Assembly (NCBI RefSeq): GCF_030013595.1
Contig: NZ_CP122768.1
Length of the DNA: 64,000 bases
Source of the DNA: Escherichia coli
Lineage (GTDB): Bacteria; Pseudomonadota; Gammaproteobacteria; Enterobacterales; Enterobacteriaceae
Strand: one strand, 5' to 3'
Shown: piece after piece, positions 11,510-63,327 of the stretch
Position numbering within the stretch: the first letter of the stretch is position 1
Layout: every line of letters starts with the position of its first letter
Notes under the pieces: model-generated
Seen by the model: only the letters and a program-made list of their open reading frames with translations
What the model was told of the DNA's origin: nothing
Database searches by the model: none
Position numbers and translations under genes: made by a program

Positions 11510-11775
11510 AAGGAGTCCCTCCGCACTGTCTGAAACAGTACAGAAATGTCTTCAGGCGTGGCGAAGCCTTACCTGAAGGTAATAAAGCTGAGCAGGGACG
11601 TTAAAACGTCACGGCCTTACGCATCCGGTAACGCCGTGAAAAGACGGGCTTACCGGAAAAGTTTTAATCTCCGTCGAGGGAGAGGCGTGGGATCAGGTTC
11701 CATATAACCTCCGGTAAGTGAAAAAAGCGCCGCAAATAATAAGGAGAATCCAATAATATTCGTAGCATCTATGGC
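11510..11775 (-). promoter_or_regulatory. mgtA 5' leader (Mg2+/proline-sensing leader RNA) containing mgtL
   Basis: Long untranslated leader between PhoP-type promoter and mgtA start, with proline-rich leader ORF. Confidence 0.7.
11650..11703 (-). CDS. mgtL: mgtA leader peptide (17 aa, [17 protein letters not shown])
   Basis: ATG at 11703 and TAA at 11650 on minus strand. Confidence 0.85.
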
Positions 11776-19261: not shown

Positions 19262-19552
19262 TCACTCATCCAGCCGTTTAGTCGCGTCTTCATAAACGGC
19301 TGAGTTCTCTCTCTTACCAATAGCTATCACCAACACGAGCAACTCTTTATCGTTAACCTGATAAACCAGGCGATATCCCTGTGTGCGCAGCTTAATTTTG
19401 TAGCAGTCCGGTAAATCCCGCAGTTTAGCCGATGGATTGCGCGGCCTTTTCAGCACATCCTCAAGCTTTTTTTTAAATTGTTCCCGGACTGTCACGCCCA
19501 GTTTTTGCCACTCTTTCAGCGCCCGCGGATCAAACGCCAGCTCATAGTTCAT
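19262..19552 (-). CDS. RelE/ParE-superfamily toxin (96 aa), RelE-like
   Basis: ORF track 19262..19630 trimmed to MNYELAFD start at 19552; strong similarity to E. coli RelE from memory (DCYKIKLR..GYRLVYQV, KRE near C-terminus); stop codon abuts nrdG stop. Confidence 0.8.
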   Translation of the reverse strand: MNYELAFDPRALKEWQKLGVTVREQFKKKLEDVLKRPRNPSAKLRDLPDCYKIKLRTQGYRLVYQVNDKELLVLVIAIGKRENSAVYEDATKRLDE

Positions 19553-19784
19553 CCAGTCGGACCTTAATGGCCTCTTGTGGGTTGGCCAGTCGTTCCCTGA
19601 CAGTGCGTAACAAGGCTTCTTCACTATCACTGACAGTGAGCGTTTTTACCGGCATTCGTCCATTTTCCGCAACGTACTGAAACAGCAGTCGCCCTGCTTC
19701 AGTAGGCGTGATATTTAATTTTTCCAGCACCGCATAAGCCTCATTTTTCAGTTTGTCATCCAGGCGGACGTTAAGTGTGGCCAT
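19542..19784 (-). CDS. RelB/DinJ-family antitoxin (80 aa)
   Basis: ORF track; ribbon-helix-helix N-terminus resembling RelB; 11-nt overlap with toxin start; ggagg RBS. Confidence 0.8.
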   Translation of the reverse strand: MATLNVRLDDKLKNEAYAVLEKLNITPTEAGRLLFQYVAENGRMPVKTLTVSDSEEALLRTVRERLANPQEAIKVRLDEL

Positions 19785-25180: not shown

Positions 25181-25207
25181 GCCTCTCCACACGGAGAGGC
25201 GTTTTTA
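25181..25207. terminator. Bidirectional terminator fbp / yjfF
   Basis: gcctctcc-acac-ggagaggc hairpin plus T-run; overlaps yjfF stop. Confidence 0.65.
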
Positions 25208-26200
25208 TCGCTGCGCAATATTGACTCTTGTCACTGGCGAACTCTGGCGATTCTCCCACAGCACCGTTAATCCACGCTGTAATGCTATAAAAATAAACAA
25301 CAAAATACCGATGGCGATTTTCGTCCACCATGAGCTCAGCGTGCCATCAAAGTTTATGTAAGTCTGAATCAGTCCCTGAATCGCCACGCCAAAAAGCGTT
25401 CCCAGCACCGTTCCTACCCCACCACTTAACAACGTACCACCAATCACCACCGACGCGATGGCGTCCAGTTCCACACCTACGCCCGCCAGCGCATATCCGG
25501 CCTGGGTATAAATCGAGAAGACAATCCCCGCCAGCGTTGCCAGTCCGGTGGAGAGCATATAAATGCGAATAGTGGTGCTGCGAGTGGAAATCCCCATCAG
25601 GTTCGCCGACGTTGCGTTGCCGCCAATGGCGTATACCTGATTACCAAAACGGGTACGATGCGCGAGGAATATGCCGATAACCACCACCGCCAGCATCAGC
25701 AGCCCCATCGCACTTAAGCGACCGCCGCCAGGGATTTTCCATGCAAGGCTTGAGAGCGTGTCATAAACAGGATGATTTATCGGGATCGACTCTTCCGAAA
25801 CGAGATAGCTGACGCCACGCAAAAAGAACATTCCTGCCAGAGTAATGATAAACGCCGGGATCTTCAGGGCGTCGATCAAAAGCCCCATAAATGCGCCAAA
25901 GGCACAGCCCATCACCAGCACCAGTGGAAACGCCAGCAGCGGCGAGAGGCCGAAATCGCCAATCACTTTTGCCAGAAACACGCCGGTAAAGGCGATCACC
26001 GAACCAACGGAGAGATCGATCCCACCGGAGAGGATCACAAAGGTCATGCCAACGGCGATTATCCCAAGAAAGGCATTATCGGTCAGGATATTGCAGATCA
26101 CTCTTGTGGAAGCAAAACCGGGAAACTGGGTCAGGCAGTAGAAATAACCCAGCACAAAGACGCCGATGGTGATCATCAGTGGCAAATTACGTTTTATCAC
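25205..26200 (-). CDS. yjfF: ABC transporter permease (galactofuranose), 331 aa
   Basis: ORF track; polytopic membrane protein; 14-nt overlap with ytfT end. Confidence 0.9.
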   Translation of the reverse strand: MIKRNLPLMITIGVFVLGYFYCLTQFPGFASTRVICNILTDNAFLGIIAVGMTFVILSGGIDLSVGSVIAFTGVFLAKVIGDFGLSPLLAFPLVLVMGCAFGAFMGLLIDALKIPAFIITLAGMFFLRGVSYLVSEESIPINHPVYDTLSSLAWKIPGGGRLSAMGLLMLAVVVIGIFLAHRTRFGNQVYAIGGNATSANLMGISTRSTTIRIYMLSTGLATLAGIVFSIYTQAGYALAGVGVELDAIASVVIGGTLLSGGVGTVLGTLFGVAIQGLIQTYINFDGTLSSWWTKIAIGILLFIFIALQRGLTVLWENRQSSPVTRVNIAQR

Positions 26201-27212
26201 GGTTACGTACCCCTTTAATCAGACTGATAAAGCGTTGCGACTGAACAATCAGCACGCAAAGCACCACCACCGCTTTTACGACCTGGTTCATCTCCGGCGG
26301 AAATCCAGAAAGCAAAATTCCGGTGTTCATCCCCTGAATAATCAGCGCCCCCACCACCGAAAGCAGTAGGTTAAAACGTCCGCCCATCAGCGAACCACCG
26401 CCAATCACCACCGCGAGAATGGCGTCCAGCTCCAGCCATAATCCGGCGTTGTTGGCATCGGCACCGCGAATATCCGCCGCCACGATAATGCCCGCAATCG
26501 CCGCACACAGCCCGCTCAACACGTAGGTGAGCATGACGATGATTCGCGTGTTGACTCCGGCATTTTTTGCCGCCCGAATATTGATACCAACGGCTTCGAT
26601 AAACATCCCCAGTGCCGTTTTGCGGGTCAACAGCCAGAACAGGAGAAGCGTCAGCACCGCAATAATGACTGGCGTTGGCAGGAACAACAGCGATCCACTG
26701 CCGAACCAGGAGAGATCCGGTGAGTTAAATGTGACGATTTGCCCGGAGGTGATCAGTTGCGCCACGCCACGCCCGGCGACCATCAGGATCAGGGTGGCAA
26801 CAAACGGCTGAATTTTGAGGATCGCTACCAGTATGCCGTTCCACAATCCCGCCAGGATGCCAGTGCCCAGGGCGCTTAACAAAACAATCGGCAGGCTGAA
26901 TCCCGCGACCGTCATCGCAGCCGTTGTGGCTCCGGCGATAGCCATCACCGCCCCTACGGAGAGATCAATCCCACCAGTGGCGATAACCAGCGTCATGCCA
27001 ATCGCCAGTAGCGCAACGGGGGCCGCACGGTTAAGAATGTCGATAGGGCTACCGAACAAACGCCCATCCTGAAGCACCACCTGCCAGAAATGCGGGGCCA
27101 CCAGGCTATCGACCAGCAACACCAGCAATAGCGCCGCCAGCTGCGGCATTCCCGTTGGCCAGCGAAAGCGCCTTTTCGGTGGCGTAGTGTCCGGGAGAGA
27201 TTGAGGCATCAC
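26187..27212 (-). CDS. ytfT: ABC transporter permease (galactofuranose), about 341 aa
   Basis: ORF track 26187..27233; start chosen to avoid overlap with the ytfR coding end; start uncertain by a few codons. Confidence 0.88.
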   Translation of the reverse strand: MMPQSLPDTTPPKRRFRWPTGMPQLAALLLVLLVDSLVAPHFWQVVLQDGRLFGSPIDILNRAAPVALLAIGMTLVIATGGIDLSVGAVMAIAGATTAAMTVAGFSLPIVLLSALGTGILAGLWNGILVAILKIQPFVATLILMVAGRGVAQLITSGQIVTFNSPDLSWFGSGSLLFLPTPVIIAVLTLLLFWLLTRKTALGMFIEAVGINIRAAKNAGVNTRIIVMLTYVLSGLCAAIAGIIVAADIRGADANNAGLWLELDAILAVVIGGGSLMGGRFNLLLSVVGALIIQGMNTGILLSGFPPEMNQVVKAVVVLCVLIVQSQRFISLIKGVRNRDKT

Positions 27213-27222
27213 ACTGTTCTCC

Positions 27223-28725
27223 TTACGCCGCAATGGCGTTCATGATCGCCGGAACGGAAAGCTCTGCCAGCGGGATCTCCGCCACCTGTTTGCGATCGCG
27301 CATGATAATCACCCGGTCGGCATAGCCCACCAGCTCTTCCAGTTCGGAAGAGATCACCAGCAGCGCCAGACCATCGGCGCACAGCGTTTCAATCAGGCGG
27401 ATGATCTCGGCATGCGCACCAACGTCAATGCCGCGGGTTGGCTCATCGAGGATCAGAAATTGCGGTCGGGTCAGTAGCCAACGTGAAAGCAACACTTTTT
27501 GCTGATTGCCGCCGGAGAGAAATTCAATCGGTTGTTCAGTTGAAGGTGTGCGAATGCCAAGCTGGCGGATAAAGCGTTGGGCAATCTCTTGCTGTTCTTT
27601 GCGGGAAATCGGTCGTAGCCAGCCGCGCTGGGCCTGGAGAGCAAGGATGATATTTTCCCGCACCGAGGCGGCGGCGATGATGCCATCGGTTTTCCTGTCT
27701 TCCGGGCAGAAGCCGATACCCAGTACCGATGCCTGATGTGGCGATCGCAGGGTTTGCTGTTTGCCTTTGATCAACGCCGTGCCGCTGTCAGCAGGTTTGA
27801 TCCCGAAGATCACTTCGGCGGTTTCGGTACGTCCTGATCCCAGCAAGCCTGCCAGGCCAACGATCTCGCCGGGGCGTACTTCGAGATCAAACGGTGCGAT
27901 CGTTCCTTTTTTGCCGTAATTTTTGAACGCGGCAACGGGTTTGTCGCTCAGCAATGTTCGTCCGGCACGCTGTAGCGCGTGGGTGTCCAGCTCGCGCCCC
28001 AGCATCATTTTTACCAGTTCGATCTGCGGTAGCTCGCGGGTTTCCCGACAGCCTACGAAACTGCCGTTGCGTAAGACGGTGATCCGATCGCTGACCTGAT
28101 AGACCTGATCGAGAAAGTGAGTAACGAAGATCAGGCTGACGCCGCGATCGTGCAACTGACGCATCAGGCCAAACAGTAACTCTACTTCCTGAGTGTCGAG
28201 GCTGGCGGTGGGTTCATCGAGGATCAGCACTTTGGCGGAGAGATCGATGGCCCGGCAAATGGCGACGATTTGCTGCATCGCCACTGAAAAGCGGTTAAGC
28301 GGTTCGCGCACGTCGAGGGAGAAACCGTAAGATGCCATCAGTTCGGTGGCGCGCTTTTCCATCTCTTTACGGCGTAGAAGGCCGAAACGTTTGGGTTCGC
28401 GACCTATGAATAGATTATCAGCGACCGACATATTGGGTAGCAGGTTGACTTCCTGATAGACGGTGCCGATGCCGAGTTGTTGTGCGTGGGCGGTATTTTT
28501 CGGTGAGATAGTCTGGCCTTCCAGCCAGATGGTGCCACGATCGGCGTGGTAGACACCGGTTAAGGCTTTGATTAGCGTTGATTTTCCCGCCCCGTTTTCA
28601 CCGAGCAGCGCCATGATTTCACCACGGCGCAGGCTGAAATCAACGTTGTCTAACGCTTTGACGCCGGGGAAAAATTTACTTAATCCTTCGGTGCGGAGGA
28701 TTTCCTGGTGTTGGTTAGTATTCAT
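27223..28725 (-). CDS. ytfR: ABC transporter ATP-binding protein with duplicated ATPase domains (500 aa)
   Basis: ORF track 27223..28776 trimmed to MNTNQHQEIL; two Walker A motifs (GENGAGKST, GLLGSGRTE). Confidence 0.9.
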   Translation of the reverse strand: MNTNQHQEILRTEGLSKFFPGVKALDNVDFSLRRGEIMALLGENGAGKSTLIKALTGVYHADRGTIWLEGQTISPKNTAHAQQLGIGTVYQEVNLLPNMSVADNLFIGREPKRFGLLRRKEMEKRATELMASYGFSLDVREPLNRFSVAMQQIVAICRAIDLSAKVLILDEPTASLDTQEVELLFGLMRQLHDRGVSLIFVTHFLDQVYQVSDRITVLRNGSFVGCRETRELPQIELVKMMLGRELDTHALQRAGRTLLSDKPVAAFKNYGKKGTIAPFDLEVRPGEIVGLAGLLGSGRTETAEVIFGIKPADSGTALIKGKQQTLRSPHQASVLGIGFCPEDRKTDGIIAAASVRENIILALQAQRGWLRPISRKEQQEIAQRFIRQLGIRTPSTEQPIEFLSGGNQQKVLLSRWLLTRPQFLILDEPTRGIDVGAHAEIIRLIETLCADGLALLVISSELEELVGYADRVIIMRDRKQVAEIPLAELSVPAIMNAIAA

Positions 28726-28762
28726 AGTTTCCCCCGTTGTAAAGCGTGCGCCAGATAAGACA

Positions 28763-28855
28763 CAACTGCGTCGCATCAGGCATCTCGCACAACCGCCGGA
28801 TGCGGCGTGAATGCCTTATCCGGCGGCCCACAAGTCGGCATCAGGCATTGATGCC
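28763..28855. repeat. REP/BIME repeats between ytfR and ytfQ
   Basis: gccggatgcggcgtgaatgccttatccggc and flanking gcatcaggc units. Confidence 0.6.
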
Positions 28856-28857
28856 CC

Positions 28858-29814
28858 TCAATACCCCATATTTTTCTTCTTCTCTAACTCTTCTTTTGCG
28901 GTATCAGGCAGATAAAGGGTGGATTTGGTCAGGGTCAGCTTTTCAGGCATGGTGCCGTCTTTTTTGTATTTCTCCAGAGCATCAAAAGCGGGGCCTGCCA
29001 TGTTCGGCGTCAGTTCAACGCTGGCGTTCGCTTCGCCATCAATCATCGCTTTGTAGATGTCCGGCACGCCGTCGATAGAGCCTGTCAGGATATCTTTGCC
29101 CGGTTTCAGGCCCGCTTCTTTAATTGCCTGAATTGCACCAATCACCATGTCATCGTTATGGGCGTAAACCATGCAGATGTTTTTGCCGTTGTTTTCCGCT
29201 TTGATAAAGCTCTCCATCACTTCTTTGCCTTTGCTGCGGGTGAAGTCACCTGACTGCGAGCGGATAATTTTGATATTTGGCGCATTCTTAATGGCTTCGG
29301 CAAAGCCTTTCTTACGGTCAATGGCGACGCTGGCCCCAACGGTGCCCTGCAGCTCCACCACGTTGCATGGTTTGCCATTCACTTCTTTTACCAGCCAGTC
29401 ACCAATCAACTTGCCTTCGAGGATGTTGTCGGCGGTGACAGTGGTCATATAGAGAGATTTGTCTTTCACATCGATGGAACGGTCAAGCAAGAAGACCGGG
29501 ATTTCGGCATCTTTCGCCTCTTTTAATACCGGCTCCCAACCGGTCGCTACCACTGGAGCGATAAAGATCGCATCCACCCCTTGCGCGACGAAGGAACGTA
29601 CCGCTTTAATCTGGTTTTCCTGCTTTTGCTGACCATCGGCAATTTTCAACGTAATTCCGCGCTTTTCGGCTTCACTTTTCGCCACATTGGTTTCTGCGGC
29701 GCGCCAGCCGGATTCCGATCCGACCTGCGAAAATCCAACGGTTAATGGAGCGGCCAACGCCATAGACGACATGGCTGCCGAGACTGCAGAGACTACAAGT
29801 AAGCGTTTCCACAT
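28858..29814 (-). CDS. ytfQ: Periplasmic galactofuranose-binding protein (318 aa)
   Basis: ORF track; signal peptide; periplasmic sugar-binding fold. Confidence 0.93.
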   Translation of the reverse strand: MWKRLLVVSAVSAAMSSMALAAPLTVGFSQVGSESGWRAAETNVAKSEAEKRGITLKIADGQQKQENQIKAVRSFVAQGVDAIFIAPVVATGWEPVLKEAKDAEIPVFLLDRSIDVKDKSLYMTTVTADNILEGKLIGDWLVKEVNGKPCNVVELQGTVGASVAIDRKKGFAEAIKNAPNIKIIRSQSGDFTRSKGKEVMESFIKAENNGKNICMVYAHNDDMVIGAIQAIKEAGLKPGKDILTGSIDGVPDIYKAMIDGEANASVELTPNMAGPAFDALEKYKKDGTMPEKLTLTKSTLYLPDTAKEELEKKKNMGY

Positions 29815-30732: not shown

Positions 30733-31083
30733 TTATTCCACCACCGCCTGCAAACGTAATAACGCCTCTTCCACCACCTCACCCGCAGCCAGACCAATAC
30801 GCTTTGCCAGCCGGGCGCGTAGATCCATCATCCGCACCTGATTCACCAGCACCACGCCGTGCACATCGCCTTCTTCGCAATGTAAAGGAACGCTAAATCC
30901 GACATAACGGGCAAAATTTCCGCCCTGCGTAATGGGGGCCACCAGCGTCATTCCCAGTTGATTAAAGGCTTGAACGGAGAGCACAAGCGCAGGTCGACCA
31001 GCACCTTGCTGTTCATGGCCGCTTGCTGGATCAAAGCCAACCAGCACAATGTCTCCCCGTTCAAATTCACTTTTCTTTACCAT
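30733..31083 (-). CDS. chpB: MazF-family endoribonuclease toxin ChpB (116 aa)
   Basis: ORF track; recognised sequence; overlaps chpS end. Confidence 0.9.
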   Translation of the reverse strand: MVKKSEFERGDIVLVGFDPASGHEQQGAGRPALVLSVQAFNQLGMTLVAPITQGGNFARYVGFSVPLHCEEGDVHGVVLVNQVRMMDLRARLAKRIGLAAGEVVEEALLRLQAVVE

Positions 31084-38385: not shown

Positions 38386-38559
38386 TTTTCATTTATCAGC
38401 AGTCTGAATTTTAACCCTCTGGCGGCTTTACAGTACCTTACGCTATACTAGCCACTGAAAATGCCGGTTCACTTTCTTCGAATCGGCTTTCAATGTGTAT
38501 TTCACACAAATTAATCAACTTCCCCTTCCGAGGATCTGGCCTGAAAGGTCGGATAAGAT

Positions 38560-40495: not shown

Positions 40496-40867
40496 ATGAC
40501 CCTACGCAAGATTCTGGCACTCACCTGCCTGCTGTTGCCGATGATGGCTTCCGCACATCAGTTCGAAACCGGTCAGCGAGTGCCGCCGATTGGCATTACC
40601 GATCGGGGCGAGTTGGTGCTTGATAAAGATCAGTTTAGCTACAAAACCTGGAACAGCGCGCAGTTAGTGGGAAAAGTGCGGGTACTGCAACATATTGCTG
40701 GTCGCACCTCTGCAAAAGAGAAAAACGCGACGCTGATTGAAGCGATTAAATCAGCGAAGTTACCGCACGATCGTTACCAGACCACCACCATTGTTAACAC
40801 CGACGACGCGATTCCGGGTTCAGGGATGTTTGTGCGCAGCAGTCTGGAGAGTAATAAAAAGCGGTAA
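40496..40867 (+). pseudogene. ytfJ: ytfJ truncated by IS1 (123 codons remain; stop codon supplied by IS1 terminal repeat)
   Basis: Signal-peptide-bearing N-terminus recognised; ORF terminates at TAA inside the IS1 inverted repeat at 40865-40867. Confidence 0.75.
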
Positions 40868-40877
40868 TGACTCCAAC

Positions 40878-41381
40878 TTACTGATAGTGTTTTATGTTCA
40901 GATAATGCCCGATGACCTTGTCATGCAGCTCCACCGATTTTGAGAACGACAGTGACTTCCGTCCCAGCCTTGCCAGATGTTGTCTCAGATTCAGGTTATG
41001 CCGCTCAATGCGCTGAGTATAACGCTTGCTGATAACGTGCAGCTTTCCCTTCAGGCGTGATTCATACAGCGGCCAGCCATCCGTCATCCATACCACGACC
41101 TCAAAGGCCGACAGCAGGCTCAGAAGACGCTCCAGTGTGGCCAGAGTGCGTTCACCGAAGACGTGCGCCACAACCGTCCTCCGCATCCTGTCATACGCGT
41201 AAAACAGCCAGCGCTGACGTGATTTAGCACCGACGTAGCCCCACTGTTCGTCCATTTCAGCGCAGACAATCACATCACTGCCCGGTTGTATGCGCGAGGT
41301 TACCGACTGCGGCCTGAGTTTTTTAAGTGGCGGAAAATCGTGTTGAGGCCAACGCCAATAATGCGTGCACTGGCGCGACAT
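40878..41381 (-). CDS. insB: IS1 InsB (167 aa; normally expressed as InsAB' fusion by -1 frameshift)
   Basis: ORF track; overlaps insA in the -1 frame. Confidence 0.95.
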
Positions 41382-41575
41382 CCGACGCCATTCATGGCCA
41401 TATCAATGATTTTCTGGTGCGTACCGGGCTGAGAGGCGGCGTAAGTGAACTGTAGTTGCCATGTTTTACGGCAGTGAGAGCAGAGATAGCGCTGATGTCC
41501 GGCGGTGCTTTTGCCGTTACGCACCACCCCGTCAGTAGCTGAACAGGAGGGACAGCTGATAGAAACAGAAGCCAC
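41300..41575 (-). CDS. insA: IS1 InsA (91 aa)
   Basis: ORF track; [23 protein letters not shown]... Zn-finger/HTH protein. Confidence 0.95.
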
Positions 41576-41789
41576 TGGAGCACCTCAAAAACACCATCAT
41601 ACACTAAATCAGTAAGTTGGCAGCATCACCATAGAAGTAAACTATCAAAAAACGCTCATTATTAAAATATAACTTATTAGCAATTGAATTTTTGCACTTT
41701 AAATACAATCTCTTTTTATTTATAACTTTTTAGGTTGGGAGAAATCAGGATGGCAGAATCAGGAAATACACTGTTTCTGCCATCTGAAT

Positions 41790-42530: not shown

Positions 42531-42719
42531 TTCTCCACCTCGTCTCTGTGAGCGGTGTTAACTTATTGTTTTACTTATACCCTATCGTTAATGAATGCGC
42601 CAACTGTGATAGTGTCATCATTTTCAAAGCGTAAAATTGTGGCATTCTTCACTGTTCTATAAGTAAGACGTTTATTCTCCCTTTTCTTTCGTATTCCCGA
42701 TGATAAAAGGATGTCCCTG

Positions 42720-50556: not shown

Positions 50557-51195
50557 ATGCCCGGGCGCTTTGAACTAAAACCAACCCTGGAGAAAGTCTG
50601 GCACGCGCCGGACAATTTTCGCTTCATGGACCCGCTGCCGCCGATGCATCGTCGGGGGATCATTATTGCCGCCATTGTATTGGTAGTCGGATTTCTGCTT
50701 CCATCTGATGATACGCCCAACGCGCCGGTGGTGACGCGTGAAGCGCAGTTAGATATTCAGTCGCAATCACAACCACCGACAGAAGAACAGCTGCGGGCGC
50801 AATTAGTCACGCCACAAAATGATCCTGATCAGGTGGCTCCGGTCGCTCCAGAACCAATACAGGAAGGCCAGCCAGAAGAGCAGCCGCAACCCCCCCAAAC
50901 GCAACCATTCCAGCCAGATAGCGGAATTGATAATCAATGGCGCTCTTACCGTGTCGAACCCGGTAAAACGATGGCACAGCTGTTCCGCGACCACGGGCTG
51001 CCCGCTACCGATGTCTATGCAATGGCGCAGGTAGAAGGCGCGGGTAAGCCGCTGAGTAATTTGCAAAACGGGCAGATGGTGAAAATCCGCCAGAACGCCA
51101 GCGGCGTGGTGACGGGCTTAACCATTGATACGGGGAATAATCAACAGGTCCTGTTTACCCGCCAGCCGGATGGCAGTTTTATTCGTGCGCGGTAG
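50557..51195 (+). CDS. ytfB: OapA/LysM-domain cell-division-associated protein (212 aa)
   Basis: ORF track 50521..51195 trimmed to MPGRFELKP; Pro/Gln-rich linker. Confidence 0.85.
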
Positions 51196-51295
51196 ATGAA
51201 GGGTCAACCAGAAGCCAGCTAAGGAGCGTCTCTTTGATGACCTTACGTCTGGCTTCCAGTGCCTGGGGGGAAACCATACTGATGTGTTGACATCC

Positions 51296-51317
51296 TCCAC
51301 GCCCTGAAGGACGTGGA
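51296..51317. repeat. Subterminal hairpin of the IS element (tnpB-distal end; shared core GCCCTGAAGGACG)
   Basis: tccac-gccctgaagga-cgtgga; 13-nt core identical to the hairpin at 52998-53017. Confidence 0.6.
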
Positions 51318-51329
51318 TCCCTGCTACGT

Positions 51330-52538
51330 TCAGGCTGTCGCCTGAATCATTTCGGTGGGTTCCTGCTTCAACGAGCGGCCTGACTGCACCATCTCTCCAC
51401 AGGCAAGAACGGCGTGCCCCGCCGCTAAAATGTTACGAGCGCCATTTACATCGGCGTTCGCTGTATATCCACATACCTGGCATCTGAATTTAATTTGTGA
51501 CAGGCGATTTTCTTTCGCTGTATGACCACAGCACGCGCAACGCTGGCTTGTGTACGCTGGCGGAACAGCAAGCACCTGACCGCCACGCCAGAGCTGCTTG
51601 TACTCAAGCTGGCGGCGCATTTCATACCAGCCCTGATCCAGTATCGAACGGTTTAAACCTGATTTTGCCCGGACATTGCGCCGCGGCTGGCTGACCGTAC
51701 CCGCTGCTGACTTTGACATGTTGCTGACCTTCAAATCCTCAATGACTATCATTGCGTGGTTTTTGCTGACGGTCGTTGTGACTTTGTGAAGGTAGTCCCT
51801 GCGGATATTTGCGATACGGGAATGCAGTCGCTGTATTTTGCGTTTCTGCTTCTGCCAGTTATTGCTGAATTTGACCTTGCGGCTTAACTGTCGCTGAAGT
51901 CTCGCCAGCTTCTTCTGTTTTTTCTGAAAACTGTTTACAGGCTCAAAGACTGTGCCATCTGACAGCGTGGCGAGTTTAACCACGCCAGCATCCAGCCCGA
52001 CCATTGATGCTGAAGGATGAACCGGAGTTGATACTTCACTTTCTGTCTGAATACTGATGTACCACTTACCGCAGGACTGGCTGACCGTGACATTTTTCAC
52101 AACACCCGTGACCTGACGGCTATTCCGGTAGCGCATCCAGCCCAGTTTCGGCAGAAAAATACGGCTGTTTTCCTGATAGAGCTTAACGCCCTACGGGTAG
52201 CGGAATGCATCATTCTGTCCCCGCTTTTTGAATCGGGGAAAAGCAGCCCGCTTCTGGAAGAAGTTTTTGTAAGCCCGCTCAAGGTCTTTCAGTGACTGTT
52301 GCAATGGCTGTGACGGGGCATCTTTAAGCCATTGCGTTTCAGTGGCATTTTTCCACTCAACCAGCCAGGAAGCCATTTTCCCGTAAGGGATGTATTTATT
52401 ACCGGCCTCATGATTCTCATTCTGAAGCGCCAGAGCACGATTGAAAACGAAACGACATGCGCCTGCGAAGCGCCTCATTTCACGCTCCTGTTGACCACCG
52501 GGTCTTAACTGGAATTTAAATGCCTGTCGTCGTTTCAC
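51330..52538 (-). pseudogene. tnpB: IS605-family TnpB (RuvC-like RNA-guided nuclease family), interrupted by one in-frame TAG
   Basis: ORFs 52191..52538 and 51330..52136 share one frame; my hand translation across the gap gives ...DAFRYP-stop-GVKLYQENSRIFLPKLGWMRYR...; C-terminal Zn ribbon CACCGH...CQVCG; RuvC-like D/E/D residues. Confidence 0.8.
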
Positions 52539-52608
52539 AGGTCAAATGATACTTTGGTCTGTGAAAAAAGAAACCTATATCCGGCGTGGAAGGTATTGTG
52601 TTTTCCTG

Positions 52609-53020
52609 ATGCATGTTCACCTGGTCTTTGTCCCAAATACCGACGCCAGATTTTTGACCATGACGCGACAGAAAAACTACGCACTTACTTTTCAAATGTA
52701 TGTGCTGATTTTGAAGCTGAACTGGTTGAAATGGATGGCGAACCAGATCACGTCCATTTGTTAATTAAATATCCTCCCAAACTGGCGATATCCAGTCTGG
52801 TAAACAGCCTCAAAGGCGTATCGGGTAGGTTACTGCGACGAGATCGACCAGATATTGCAGTCAGGTATTACTACAAAGGCGTTTTGTGGAGTCCTGGCTA
52901 TTTTGCCAGTAGCTGTGGAGGTGCGCCAATATCCGCCATCCGTCAATCCATTGAACAACAGCAAACACCTGGTCAGGTGGAAAACCGCGCCGTATATCCC
53001 CGCCCTGAAGGACGGGGTTT
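52609..53020 (+). pseudogene. tnpA: IS200-type Y1 (HuH) transposase TnpA, -1 frameshifted near N-terminus
   Basis: MHVHLVFVP in one frame, then KYRRQIF...DHVHLLI... (HuH motif) in another; switch within gtcccaaatac homopolymer context; no in-frame stop until 53159, so C-terminus undefined. Confidence 0.7.
52998..53017. repeat. Subterminal hairpin of the IS element (tnpA-distal end)
   Basis: cccc-gccctgaagga-cgggg; same loop and core as 51296-51317. Confidence 0.6.
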
Positions 53021-53033
53021 TACGGCACACCGG

Positions 53034-53357
53034 ATAAACCAGGCCAAGCGTATGCTGGTTGATCAAATAATATCCCCCAAGCGCAGCAATATTAATATAC
53101 ACCTGCAATGGGTCGATATCTGGCTTAAAAATATTGTGTTTCTTCCCTTCATCCAATAAGGATTCCATTAACTGCAAGTGCGCATGATTAATTTCTAAGA
53201 GACGCTGTGATTTTACATAATGCACACCTTTACTTTGGTTTTCACTATGCACAATTTTTAAAAACCAAGGATTAGCAATATAATATATCCTAGGTAAAAT
53301 CGATGATTTTTTCAATGGCTTTTTGTGGCTGGTTAACCTGCTGATTAACAAACGCAC
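53034..53357 (-). pseudogene. ytfA: Truncated ORF, N-terminal about 108 codons, ytfA-like; C-terminus replaced by IS sequence
   Basis: 175-codon ORF 52830..53357 whose last third is antisense to tnpA; identity with K-12 ytfA is from positional memory only. Confidence 0.45.
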
Positions 53358-55512: not shown

Positions 55513-55926
<414 letters not shown>

Positions 55927-56234
55927 TTATTCAGCCTCCTGTCTGGGTCAGCCGAATCCCGGGGAGGCAAGGAACGTGTTAAAGGTCGGCTGAAAAATGA
56001 CGCATTATAGTACTGACATACCCTGCTAAACTCAAGGCCAGCCGACAAATAAATCTCATCTTTCACCAAATCGTACTAACACGCTGATTTGAAGTTCATC
56101 ACACTTCATCATGGTGTTTTTTTGAACAACTGCATCAGAAATGGTCACCATCAACTTCTTTATCATTGATTAAAATTAAATCAGAAGATCATCACAGAGG
56201 AGAGCACACAAAGTCAGCCGTCGAGGAGGTATCT

Positions 56235-62571: not shown

Positions 62572-63327
62572 ATGACTGAAGCACAAAGACATCAAATCCT
62601 CCTGGAAATGCTCGCACAATTGGGCTTTGTGACCGTTGAGAAAGTCGTTGAGCGTCTGGGAATTTCGCCTGCCACTGCGCGACGCGATATCAATAAACTT
62701 GACGAAAGCGGCAAACTGAAAAAAGTGCGCAATGGCGCAGAAGCTATTACCCAACAGCGCCCGCGCTGGACGCCGATGAATCTGCATCAGGCGCAGAATC
62801 ACGATGAAAAAGTACGTATTGCTAAAGCGGCCTCGCAACTGGTTAATCCGGGCGAAAGCGTAGTCATCAACTGCGGCTCCACCGCGTTTCTGCTTGGGCG
62901 GGAAATGTGTGGCAAGCCAGTGCAAATCATCACTAATTATCTACCGCTGGCAAATTACCTGATCGATCAGGAGCATGACAGCGTGATCATTATGGGCGGA
63001 CAGTACAACAAAAGTCAGTCCATCACTTTAAGCCCGCAAGGCAGCGAAAACAGTCTCTATGCCGGGCACTGGATGTTTACCAGCGGCAAAGGGCTGACAG
63101 CAGAAGGGTTGTATAAAACCGATATGTTGACGGCAATGGCAGAGCAGAAGATGCTGAGCGTGGTAGGGAAACTGGTGGTACTGGTTGATAGCAGTAAGAT
63201 TGGCGAACGCGCGGGAATGCTTTTTAGCCGTGCCGATCAAATCGATATGCTGATCACCGGCAAAAATGCTAACCCGGAAATCCTGCAACAACTGGAAGCG
63301 CAAGGGGTCAGCATTCTGCGTGTTTAA
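62572..63327 (+). CDS. ulaR: DeoR-family repressor of the ula regulon (251 aa)
   Basis: ORF track; N-terminal HTH, DeoR C-terminal sugar-phosphate-binding domain. Confidence 0.93.

Follow-up and report, generated by a model that had tools for sequence, protein, structure and literature searches.

Do the genes of the ytfQRT-yjfF operon of Escherichia coli really overlap one another, and, if so, is their translation coupled? The question is raised by the E. coli chromosomal DNA between positions 25205 and 29814 of a stretch of 64,000 nucleotides (nt; contig NZ_CP122768.1 of RefSeq assembly GCF_030013595.1, the whole stretch being termed the window), which holds on its minus strand the genes ytfQ-ytfR-ytfT-yjfF (gafABCD), transcribed in the order ytfQ > ytfR > ytfT > yjfF. 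An earlier note on this DNA had proposed that yjfF overlaps the end of ytfT by 14 nt, that ytfR and ytfT are essentially contiguous, that tamA/tamB and ulaE/ulaF elsewhere in the window share four nt and one nt, respectively, and that these arrangements suggest translational coupling. Every junction was re-derived here from the window sequence itself, and both the gene identities and the junction distances in that note proved to be right. The comparison of related loci indicates that the 14-nt overlap of ytfT with yjfF is genuine and conserved and is no artefact of annotation, and translational coupling is a plausible reading of these gene pairs.

The operon encodes a galactofuranose/arabinofuranose importer, for which control by GalR/GalS and AraC has been reported and the name gafABCD proposed (PMC10191376). 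Two E. coli genomes match the interval at 100% identity and nearly all of 5,421 others at ~98%, and its ytfQ/ytfR/ytfT/yjfF annotation is the same in all of these matched genomes. Pfam matches of all four proteins show a binding protein, a two-domain ATP-binding cassette (ABC) ATPase and BPD_transp_2 permeases in one operon, as in a CUT2-like importer, and YtfQ matches its own solved structure (PDB 2VK2, E 3e-193). The genes and the junctions in question, with protein lengths in amino acids (aa) and with the Shine-Dalgarno sequence abbreviated SD, are as follows.

28858..29814, minus strand: ytfQ (gafA), periplasmic galactofuranose/arabinofuranose-binding protein, 318 aa (RefSeq, identical sequence; Pfam Peripla_BP_4, E 3e-46)
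28726..28857, minus strand: ytfQ-ytfR spacer, 132 nt, with two hairpins of the repetitive extragenic palindromic (REP) type (Rfam and fold)
27223..28725, minus strand: ytfR (gafB), fused two-domain ABC ATPase, 500 aa (Pfam, two ABC_tran stretches)
27210..27225, minus strand: ytfR/ytfT junction, ytfR TAA 27225-27223 fused to the SD (TAAGGAG), a 10-nt gap, then GTG-ATG
26187..27212, minus strand: ytfT (gafC), permease, 341 aa from GTG 27212 (Pfam BPD_transp_2, E 4e-53)
26210..26216, minus strand: yjfF SD, AAAGGGG, inside the ytfT coding sequence, 9 nt 5' of the GTG; anti-SD duplex -7.9 kcal/mol
26187..26200, minus strand: ytfT/yjfF overlap, 14 nt, dual-coding GTGATAAAACGTAA, from yjfF GTG 26200-26198 through ytfT TAA 26189-26187
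25205..26200, minus strand: yjfF (gafD), second permease, 331 aa, GTG start (Pfam BPD_transp_2, E 3e-38)
35663-35660, minus strand: tamA/tamB overlap, ATGA, 4 nt, stop/start
57325, minus strand: ulaE/ulaF overlap, TAATG, single common base A

The RefSeq/PGAP product name of the gene at 26187-27212 (minus strand), "galactofuranose ABC transporter, ATP-binding protein YtfT", is wrong, as the protein is a BPD_transp_2 permease and has no ABC_tran domain; this error has spread through E. coli genomes.

Starts of yjfF and ytfT

The start of yjfF was examined in 80 orthologous loci, one per species, across the Enterobacteriaceae. The codon aligned with position 26200 is a start codon in every one of them (ATG in 70, GTG in 10), ytfT and yjfF overlap by 14 nt in 76 loci and by 8 nt in the remaining four, and the motif RTGATHAAACGTAA is found in 79. 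In 70 of the 80 loci the start is read within ATGA, the TGA of which is out of frame for ytfT. Beyond the overlap, yjfF codons 5-9 change at synonymous positions only, and tblastn alignments of YjfF with orthologues of 48-64% identity mostly begin at residue 1, the four most distant alignments starting at residue 2-4 instead. An SD-like purine run lies 7-13 nt 5' of the yjfF start in every locus, and none of the 80 predicted duplexes with the anti-SD is weaker than -5.3 kcal/mol. They average -7.5 kcal/mol, whereas the background averages -3.2, and a value of -7.5 kcal/mol is attained in just 2.5% of 20-nt windows drawn at random from the coding sequence of these genes. This SD persists although the bases that make it up also encode the C-terminal tail of YtfT, which varies (IKGVR, LKGLR, LRRRR and others).

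The yjfF frame offers no possible start further upstream, and two candidates downstream were rejected. TTG 26185 and ATG 26176 both lack an SD (+0.5 and +0.6 kcal/mol). The TTG at codon 6 is not conserved, being TTA, CTG, CTT or CTC elsewhere, and two loci have ACG or ACC where the ATG stands at codon 9. It is GTG 26200, therefore, that has the properties of a real start, which is not true of the most upstream ytfT candidate discussed below.

The value of 14 nt itself can change by a single base. In the four loci with an 8-nt overlap (L046, L049, L050 and L055 of the set, from Atlantibacter and a single record labelled "Citrobacter freundii"), yjfF has ATT as its second codon in place of ATA or ATC, with the result that the ytfT frame meets a TAA sooner; one synonymous change in yjfF codon 2 is enough to move the junction from one overlap class to another (14 to 8 nt).

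For ytfT, 79 Enterobacteriaceae loci were compared. The sequence TAAGGAG, which is both the ytfR stop codon and the SD, is near-invariant (two variants, TGAGGAG and TAAAGGAG) and is followed by a variable stretch of 5-6 nt, with 39 different 5-mers among the 79 loci, such that the gap between ytfR and ytfT is 10 nt in 74 of them. The first ytfT codon is GTG in 71 loci, ATG in four and TTG in four, and is never a non-start codon, while the second is ATG in 78; the remaining locus reads GTG-AGG. Because of this one locus, and because no non-start codon occurs at the first position, the start of ytfT is probably better placed at GTG 27212, as in the K-12 annotation (gtGTG with the SD UAAGGAG; PMC9841429, Table 3), than at the RefSeq start ATG 27209. 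The two starts give proteins of 341 aa and 340 aa, and gaps to the ytfR stop of 10 nt and 13 nt, either of which makes the genes essentially contiguous.

In the window the ytfT start stands in the context GUGUGAUG (27207-27214, minus strand), in which an out-of-frame GUG-UGA start-stop is followed by the in-frame GUG and then AUG. Kohl et al. predict no ambiguity for ytfT (PMC9841429). We rejected the GUGUGA start-stop as a conserved feature of ytfT, as the two bases 5' of the GTG (GU) vary among genera.

The longest ytfT open reading frame does overlap ytfR by 11 nt, as had been claimed, if it is read from TTG 27233, but this codon does not behave as a real start. It has no SD, pairing with the anti-SD at only -2.1 kcal/mol compared with -9.2 kcal/mol for the favoured start, and it is found in 33 of the 79 loci and absent from the other 46, its presence being set by the choice of synonymous Ile codon in ytfR; 34 of the loci have no upstream ytfT start of any kind. 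The 11-nt overlap is a chance product of the longest-ORF (open reading frame) rule.

Thus, counted as nt shared (negative) or intervening (positive), co-directional overlaps are present at ytfT/yjfF (-14), tamA/tamB (-4) and ulaE/ulaF (-1), while ytfR/ytfT (+10) is non-overlapping. The starts of tamB and ulaF are based on the frames in the window, stop/start geometry, SD pairing, annotation and the K-12 table considered below, the comparative set being of yjfF and ytfT loci. An SD lies at the 3' end of the upstream gene for yjfF, for ulaF (anti-SD pairing -9.3 kcal/mol) and for ytfT, where it is fused to the stop codon, and is weak for tamB (-4.7 kcal/mol). Among the 37 same-strand neighbor pairs of the window, five overlap, which is close to the ~15% that is typical of most prokaryotic groups (PMC6728339), and the number of overlaps is therefore not unusual.

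Junction spacing and the spacer after ytfQ

Alpha- and beta-proteobacteria carry these genes in the same order on chromids and large plasmids, with 48-64% YjfF identity. The annotated junctions of these distant orthologues were verified against sequence, and the distances for ytfR/ytfT (R/T) and ytfT/yjfF (T/F), together with the length of the ytfQ-ytfR (Q/R) spacer in nt, are given below.

Sinorhizobium: R/T -4; T/F -4; Q/R spacer 142
Azospirillum: R/T -4; T/F +4; Q/R spacer 38
Paracoccus: R/T -1; T/F -4; Q/R spacer 55
Paraburkholderia: R/T -4; T/F -4; Q/R spacer 103
Burkholderia: R/T -4; T/F -4; Q/R spacer 61
Bosea: R/T +14; T/F +8; Q/R spacer 67

The R/T and T/F junctions in these groups are mostly -4 or -1 overlaps. 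What is conserved is the tight spacing of the ATPase and permease genes together with a loose spacer after the gene of the binding protein, and not the value of 14.

The 132-nt spacer of the window forms two strong hairpins when folded (-61.4 kcal/mol, z -3.16) and matches the Rfam family RF02564, naRNA4, at 28749-28825 (61.6 bits, gathering score 59.5), a family that we take to be REP-derived. This match and the fold are the basis on which the window spacer is assigned to the REP sequences and bacterial interspersed mosaic elements (BIMEs); the REP pattern GCC(G/T)GATG(C/A)G(G/A)CG was run on relatives, where it matched the spacers of three Escherichia loci (L004, L005 and L007). The longest-ORF start of ytfR, ATG 28776, was rejected, as it falls within one of the REP hairpins and its SD is weak (-3.0 kcal/mol). 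In 75 relatives the spacer is 50-685 nt long, and by eye, in the first 140 nt of each, nearly all carry palindromic repeats of differing families. These are REP-type repeats in Escherichia and Citrobacter and an unrelated CCCTCTCCC-loop-GGGAGAGGG hairpin family in Enterobacter, Kosakonia, Leclercia, Buttiauxella and others. The ytfQ-ytfR spacer is in this respect a hotspot for palindromic intergenic repeats, with different families at the same place (loci L004-L082).

A similar arrangement exists at malE-malF, where stable REP hairpins also stand right after the gene of a binding protein and before those of the membrane components, and where, in work by Newbury et al. in 1987, REP reportedly stabilises the upstream mRNA segment. 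It differs from malE-malF in that other genera carry unrelated palindromic repeats in the ytfQ-ytfR spacer. By analogy, the REP spacer probably raises the share of ytfQ relative to the distal genes; the ytfQ part of the mRNA would outlast or outnumber the distal part, and the binding protein would be made in excess over the membrane complex. A consensus scan for internal promoters and terminators in the operon returned sites that were no more numerous than in shuffled sequence.

Proposed coupling of translation and its rivals

With moderate confidence we favor mixed initiation at ytfT and yjfF, in which just-terminated ribosomes reinitiate and others enter de novo at the SD. The genes of the membrane complex are packed such that a ribosome finishing one gene would sit at the ribosome-binding site of the next, and ribosomes terminating on the upstream gene would be recaptured by the nearby SD, accounting by termination-reinitiation for part of the translation of ytfT and yjfF, to which ordinary de novo SD-dependent initiation would add. 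The outcome might be roughly equimolar amounts of YtfR, YtfT and YjfF for a 1:1:1 complex. The tamA/tamB (ATGA) and ulaE/ulaF (TAATG) pairs are standard -4 and -1 junctions.

Several published observations bear on this. Four of five native -4 pairs of E. coli, none of which is from this window, were strictly coupled, usually with the aid of an SD (Huber et al., 2019; PMC6728339). Reinitiation drops steeply with distance, and the range of -8 to +10 nt, which is treated as predictive of termination-reinitiation, shows a 4.5-fold enrichment for subunits of heteromeric complexes (Huber et al., 2023; PMC10666635). The supplement to that study flags ytfR/ytfT, ytfT/yjfF and tamA/tamB as "CMPLX yes", and the expected 1:1:1 assembly of YtfR, YtfT and YjfF and the TamA/TamB complex fit the enrichment pattern. 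Within the predictive range are tamA/tamB (-4), ulaE/ulaF (-1), ytfR/ytfT at its edge (+10) and the four yjfF relatives at -8. How coupling works in bacteria is, in general, unsettled (PMC12548453).

There are also considerations that weigh against mixed initiation. The -14 distance of ytfT/yjfF lies outside the predictive range, and in pairs of the +9 to +12 class, to which ytfR/ytfT belongs, Huber et al. (2023) consider that the downstream gene for the most part starts translation on its own, at an SD within the spacer. The bioB/bioF pair, one of the -4 pairs that were tested, is uncoupled (PMC6728339). The overlap of ytfT and yjfF is near-invariant because it is dual-coding, which is what would be expected in any case and is no independent evidence for coupling. 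A conserved structure masking the yjfF ribosome-binding site was not found, either in a single-sequence fold or in a 33-sequence consensus, and since no such structure hides the site, de novo initiation at yjfF could suffice. The role given to the REP spacer is drawn by analogy only. The literature yielded no published coupling experiment on these particular pairs. Experimental start-site data for these genes were not found in the literature either, and the genes go unmentioned in the 2026 TRAINSPOTTER N-terminomics supplements. Given a YtfT abundance of 0.086 parts per million (Kohl et al., 2022; PMC9841429), the operon is probably hardly expressed under standard culture conditions, and the absence of start-site data fits this very low abundance.

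The main rival, which is possible if on the doubtful side, is that each cistron is initiated independently from its own SD and that its translation does not depend functionally on that of the gene upstream, the overlaps and short gaps being a by-product of compact operons and stop-codon drift. The strong, well-spaced SDs of ytfT, yjfF and ulaF speak for this, as do the unmasked yjfF site, the independent initiation deemed likely at +9 to +12, the behavior of bioB/bioF despite its -4 overlap and the variation of the exact distance across Proteobacteria (-14, -8, -4, +4, +8). Against it, the R/T and T/F junctions are tight, and the Q/R spacer long, in every lineage examined, short-distance pairs are enriched for complex subunits and four of the five E. 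coli overlaps that were tested are coupled.

Coupling could also be brought about by RNA unfolding, in which a ribosome moving along ytfT opens up a structure that covers the ribosome-binding site of yjfF, where a new 30S subunit then initiates. This is a recognised alternative model (PMC12548453), and the single-sequence minimum-free-energy fold does pair part of the region around the GUG, but that fold is no stabler than those of shuffled sequence (z -1.37, with 18 of 200 shuffles folding as well), and the 33-sequence consensus leaves columns 47-110, which include the SD and the start, unpaired and without compensatory changes, making the model quite improbable here. Finally, it is extremely improbable that the overlaps are annotation artefacts with true starts downstream (for yjfF, at ATG 26176, for example) and non-overlapping genes, since, although that in-frame ATG lies only eight codons 3' of the yjfF GTG, the literature offers no experimental mapping of these starts and the longest-ORF overlap of ytfT really is an artefact, the yjfF start codon is kept in all 80 loci (ATG in 70), the substitution pattern is of coding type from codon 2 onward, the downstream candidates lack an SD, the ATG is dispensed with in two loci and distant YjfF alignments mostly begin at residue 1.

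Mixed initiation leaves room for a more specific and, in our view, unlikely proposal for the -14 junction, namely that it is an efficient reinitiation site, at which ribosomes ending at the ytfT UAA move back 11-14 nt to the SD-anchored start. If this were true, E. coli ribosomes would be capable of termination-reinitiation at distances well past the currently assumed limit of -8, and the lineage would have exchanged its ancestral ATGA (-4) junction for a dual-coding one of greater length with coupling kept.

The YtfR ATPase, the window and what the junctions mean

YtfR is a fused protein with two ABC_tran domains, as the earlier note had stated, but the two Walker A motifs with which it was credited reduce to one canonical motif. 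The N-terminal domain has the Walker A motif GENGAGKS (residue 42), the Walker B motif VLILDE (166), an H-loop His and a degenerate signature, FSVAMQQ, while the C-terminal domain has GLLGSGRT (293), the Walker B motif FLILDE (423) and the canonical signature LSGGN (403), and is without the H-loop His. The pattern GxxxxGK[ST] fits GENGAGKS only, as GLLGSGRT has Arg in place of Lys. These motifs predict one consensus and one degenerate ATP site. Such a pairing of sites is usual in the fused ATPases of sugar importers (RbsA, MglA, AraG). A sequence search gave no solved structure of a close YtfR relative, only generic ABC domains.

In general terms, the CUT2 importers (RbsA, MglA, AraG, XylG) resemble the YtfR system in having two ABC domains in one chain together with BPD_transp_2 and Peripla_BP_4 proteins, and the likeness extends to the asymmetry of the YtfR motifs (Arg in the second Walker A, degenerate first signature). 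Those systems have one permease gene, whereas there are two separate permease genes here, ytfT and yjfF, the products of which are taken to form a heterodimer. Proteins and gene order are like those of Shewanella GafABCD (PMC10191376), and the binding protein is that of YtfQ structure 2VK2; the topic of both of those papers is substrate specificity and not junction architecture.

Elsewhere in the window there are overlaps that the earlier note did not list, namely relB/relE (11 nt), chpS/chpB (7 nt) and the convergent ulaR/yjfP (4 nt). The first is in a RelE/RelB-family toxin-antitoxin pair at 19262-19784 (minus strand) between nrdG and cybC, in which the 11-nt overlap reads ATGAACTATGA and the stop codons of relE and nrdG, which are on opposite strands, directly adjoin each other (gap 0). 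These two overlaps and the features scoring above the Rfam gathering score, including small RNAs (sRNAs), are as follows.

31077-31083, minus strand: chpS/chpB overlap, 7 nt
63324-63327: ulaR/yjfP convergent overlap, 4 nt
11603-11718, minus strand: Mg riboswitch upstream of mgtA (Rfam)
38441-38498, plus strand: STnc450 sRNA (Rfam)
42597-42719, minus strand: ES239 sRNA (Rfam)
55906-55990, minus strand: RpsF leader (Rfam)

An IS1 copy of 768 bp (40863-41630) truncates ytfJ to 123 aa. Its minus-strand genes insA (41300-41575) and insB (40878-41381) overlap by 82 nt and are presumably the programmed-frameshift pair of IS1. The copy stands in place of 1,240 bp found in the otherwise closest genome, NZ_CM149870.1, and because of this IS1-associated rearrangement coordinates beyond 41631 are shifted relative to that genome. 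A 1.1-kb query across the junction was covered to at least 80% in only 2 of 5,426 genomes (97.2% identity, three pieces, ~2.35 kb). At ~51179-53328, according to the annotation of a near-identical genome, a TetR-family regulator gene is broken into fragments by IS200/IS605 remnants, namely a frameshifted tnpA and an insQ/tnpB that contains an internal stop.

As for the junctions themselves, the K-12 distances tabulated in the supplement to Huber et al. (2023) are -1 for ulaE/ulaF, -4 for tamA/tamB, +10 for ytfR/ytfT and -14 for ytfT/yjfF (PMC10666635). These are the same four junctions at the same distances, with the SD inside the upstream gene, and the window, ~98% identical to most E. coli, differs from K-12 at the level of strain sequence only. 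Pairs at -14 are less common than those at -4, -1 or -8. The ytfT start context was likewise tabulated by Kohl et al. (2022; PMC9841429), and because both the K-12 distances and this context were already on record, the junctions were known and nothing in the finding is new. Such short overlaps and near-contacts are textbook operon architecture, both real and conserved.

The importance of these results beyond the quality of annotation is slight. What can be used is the support for the yjfF GTG in 80 genomes, the placing of ytfT at GTG 27212 and the correction of the YtfT product name. The operon itself is a clean case of a pattern in the literature, in which a loose, structured junction follows the gene of the binding protein and tight junctions join those of the membrane complex.

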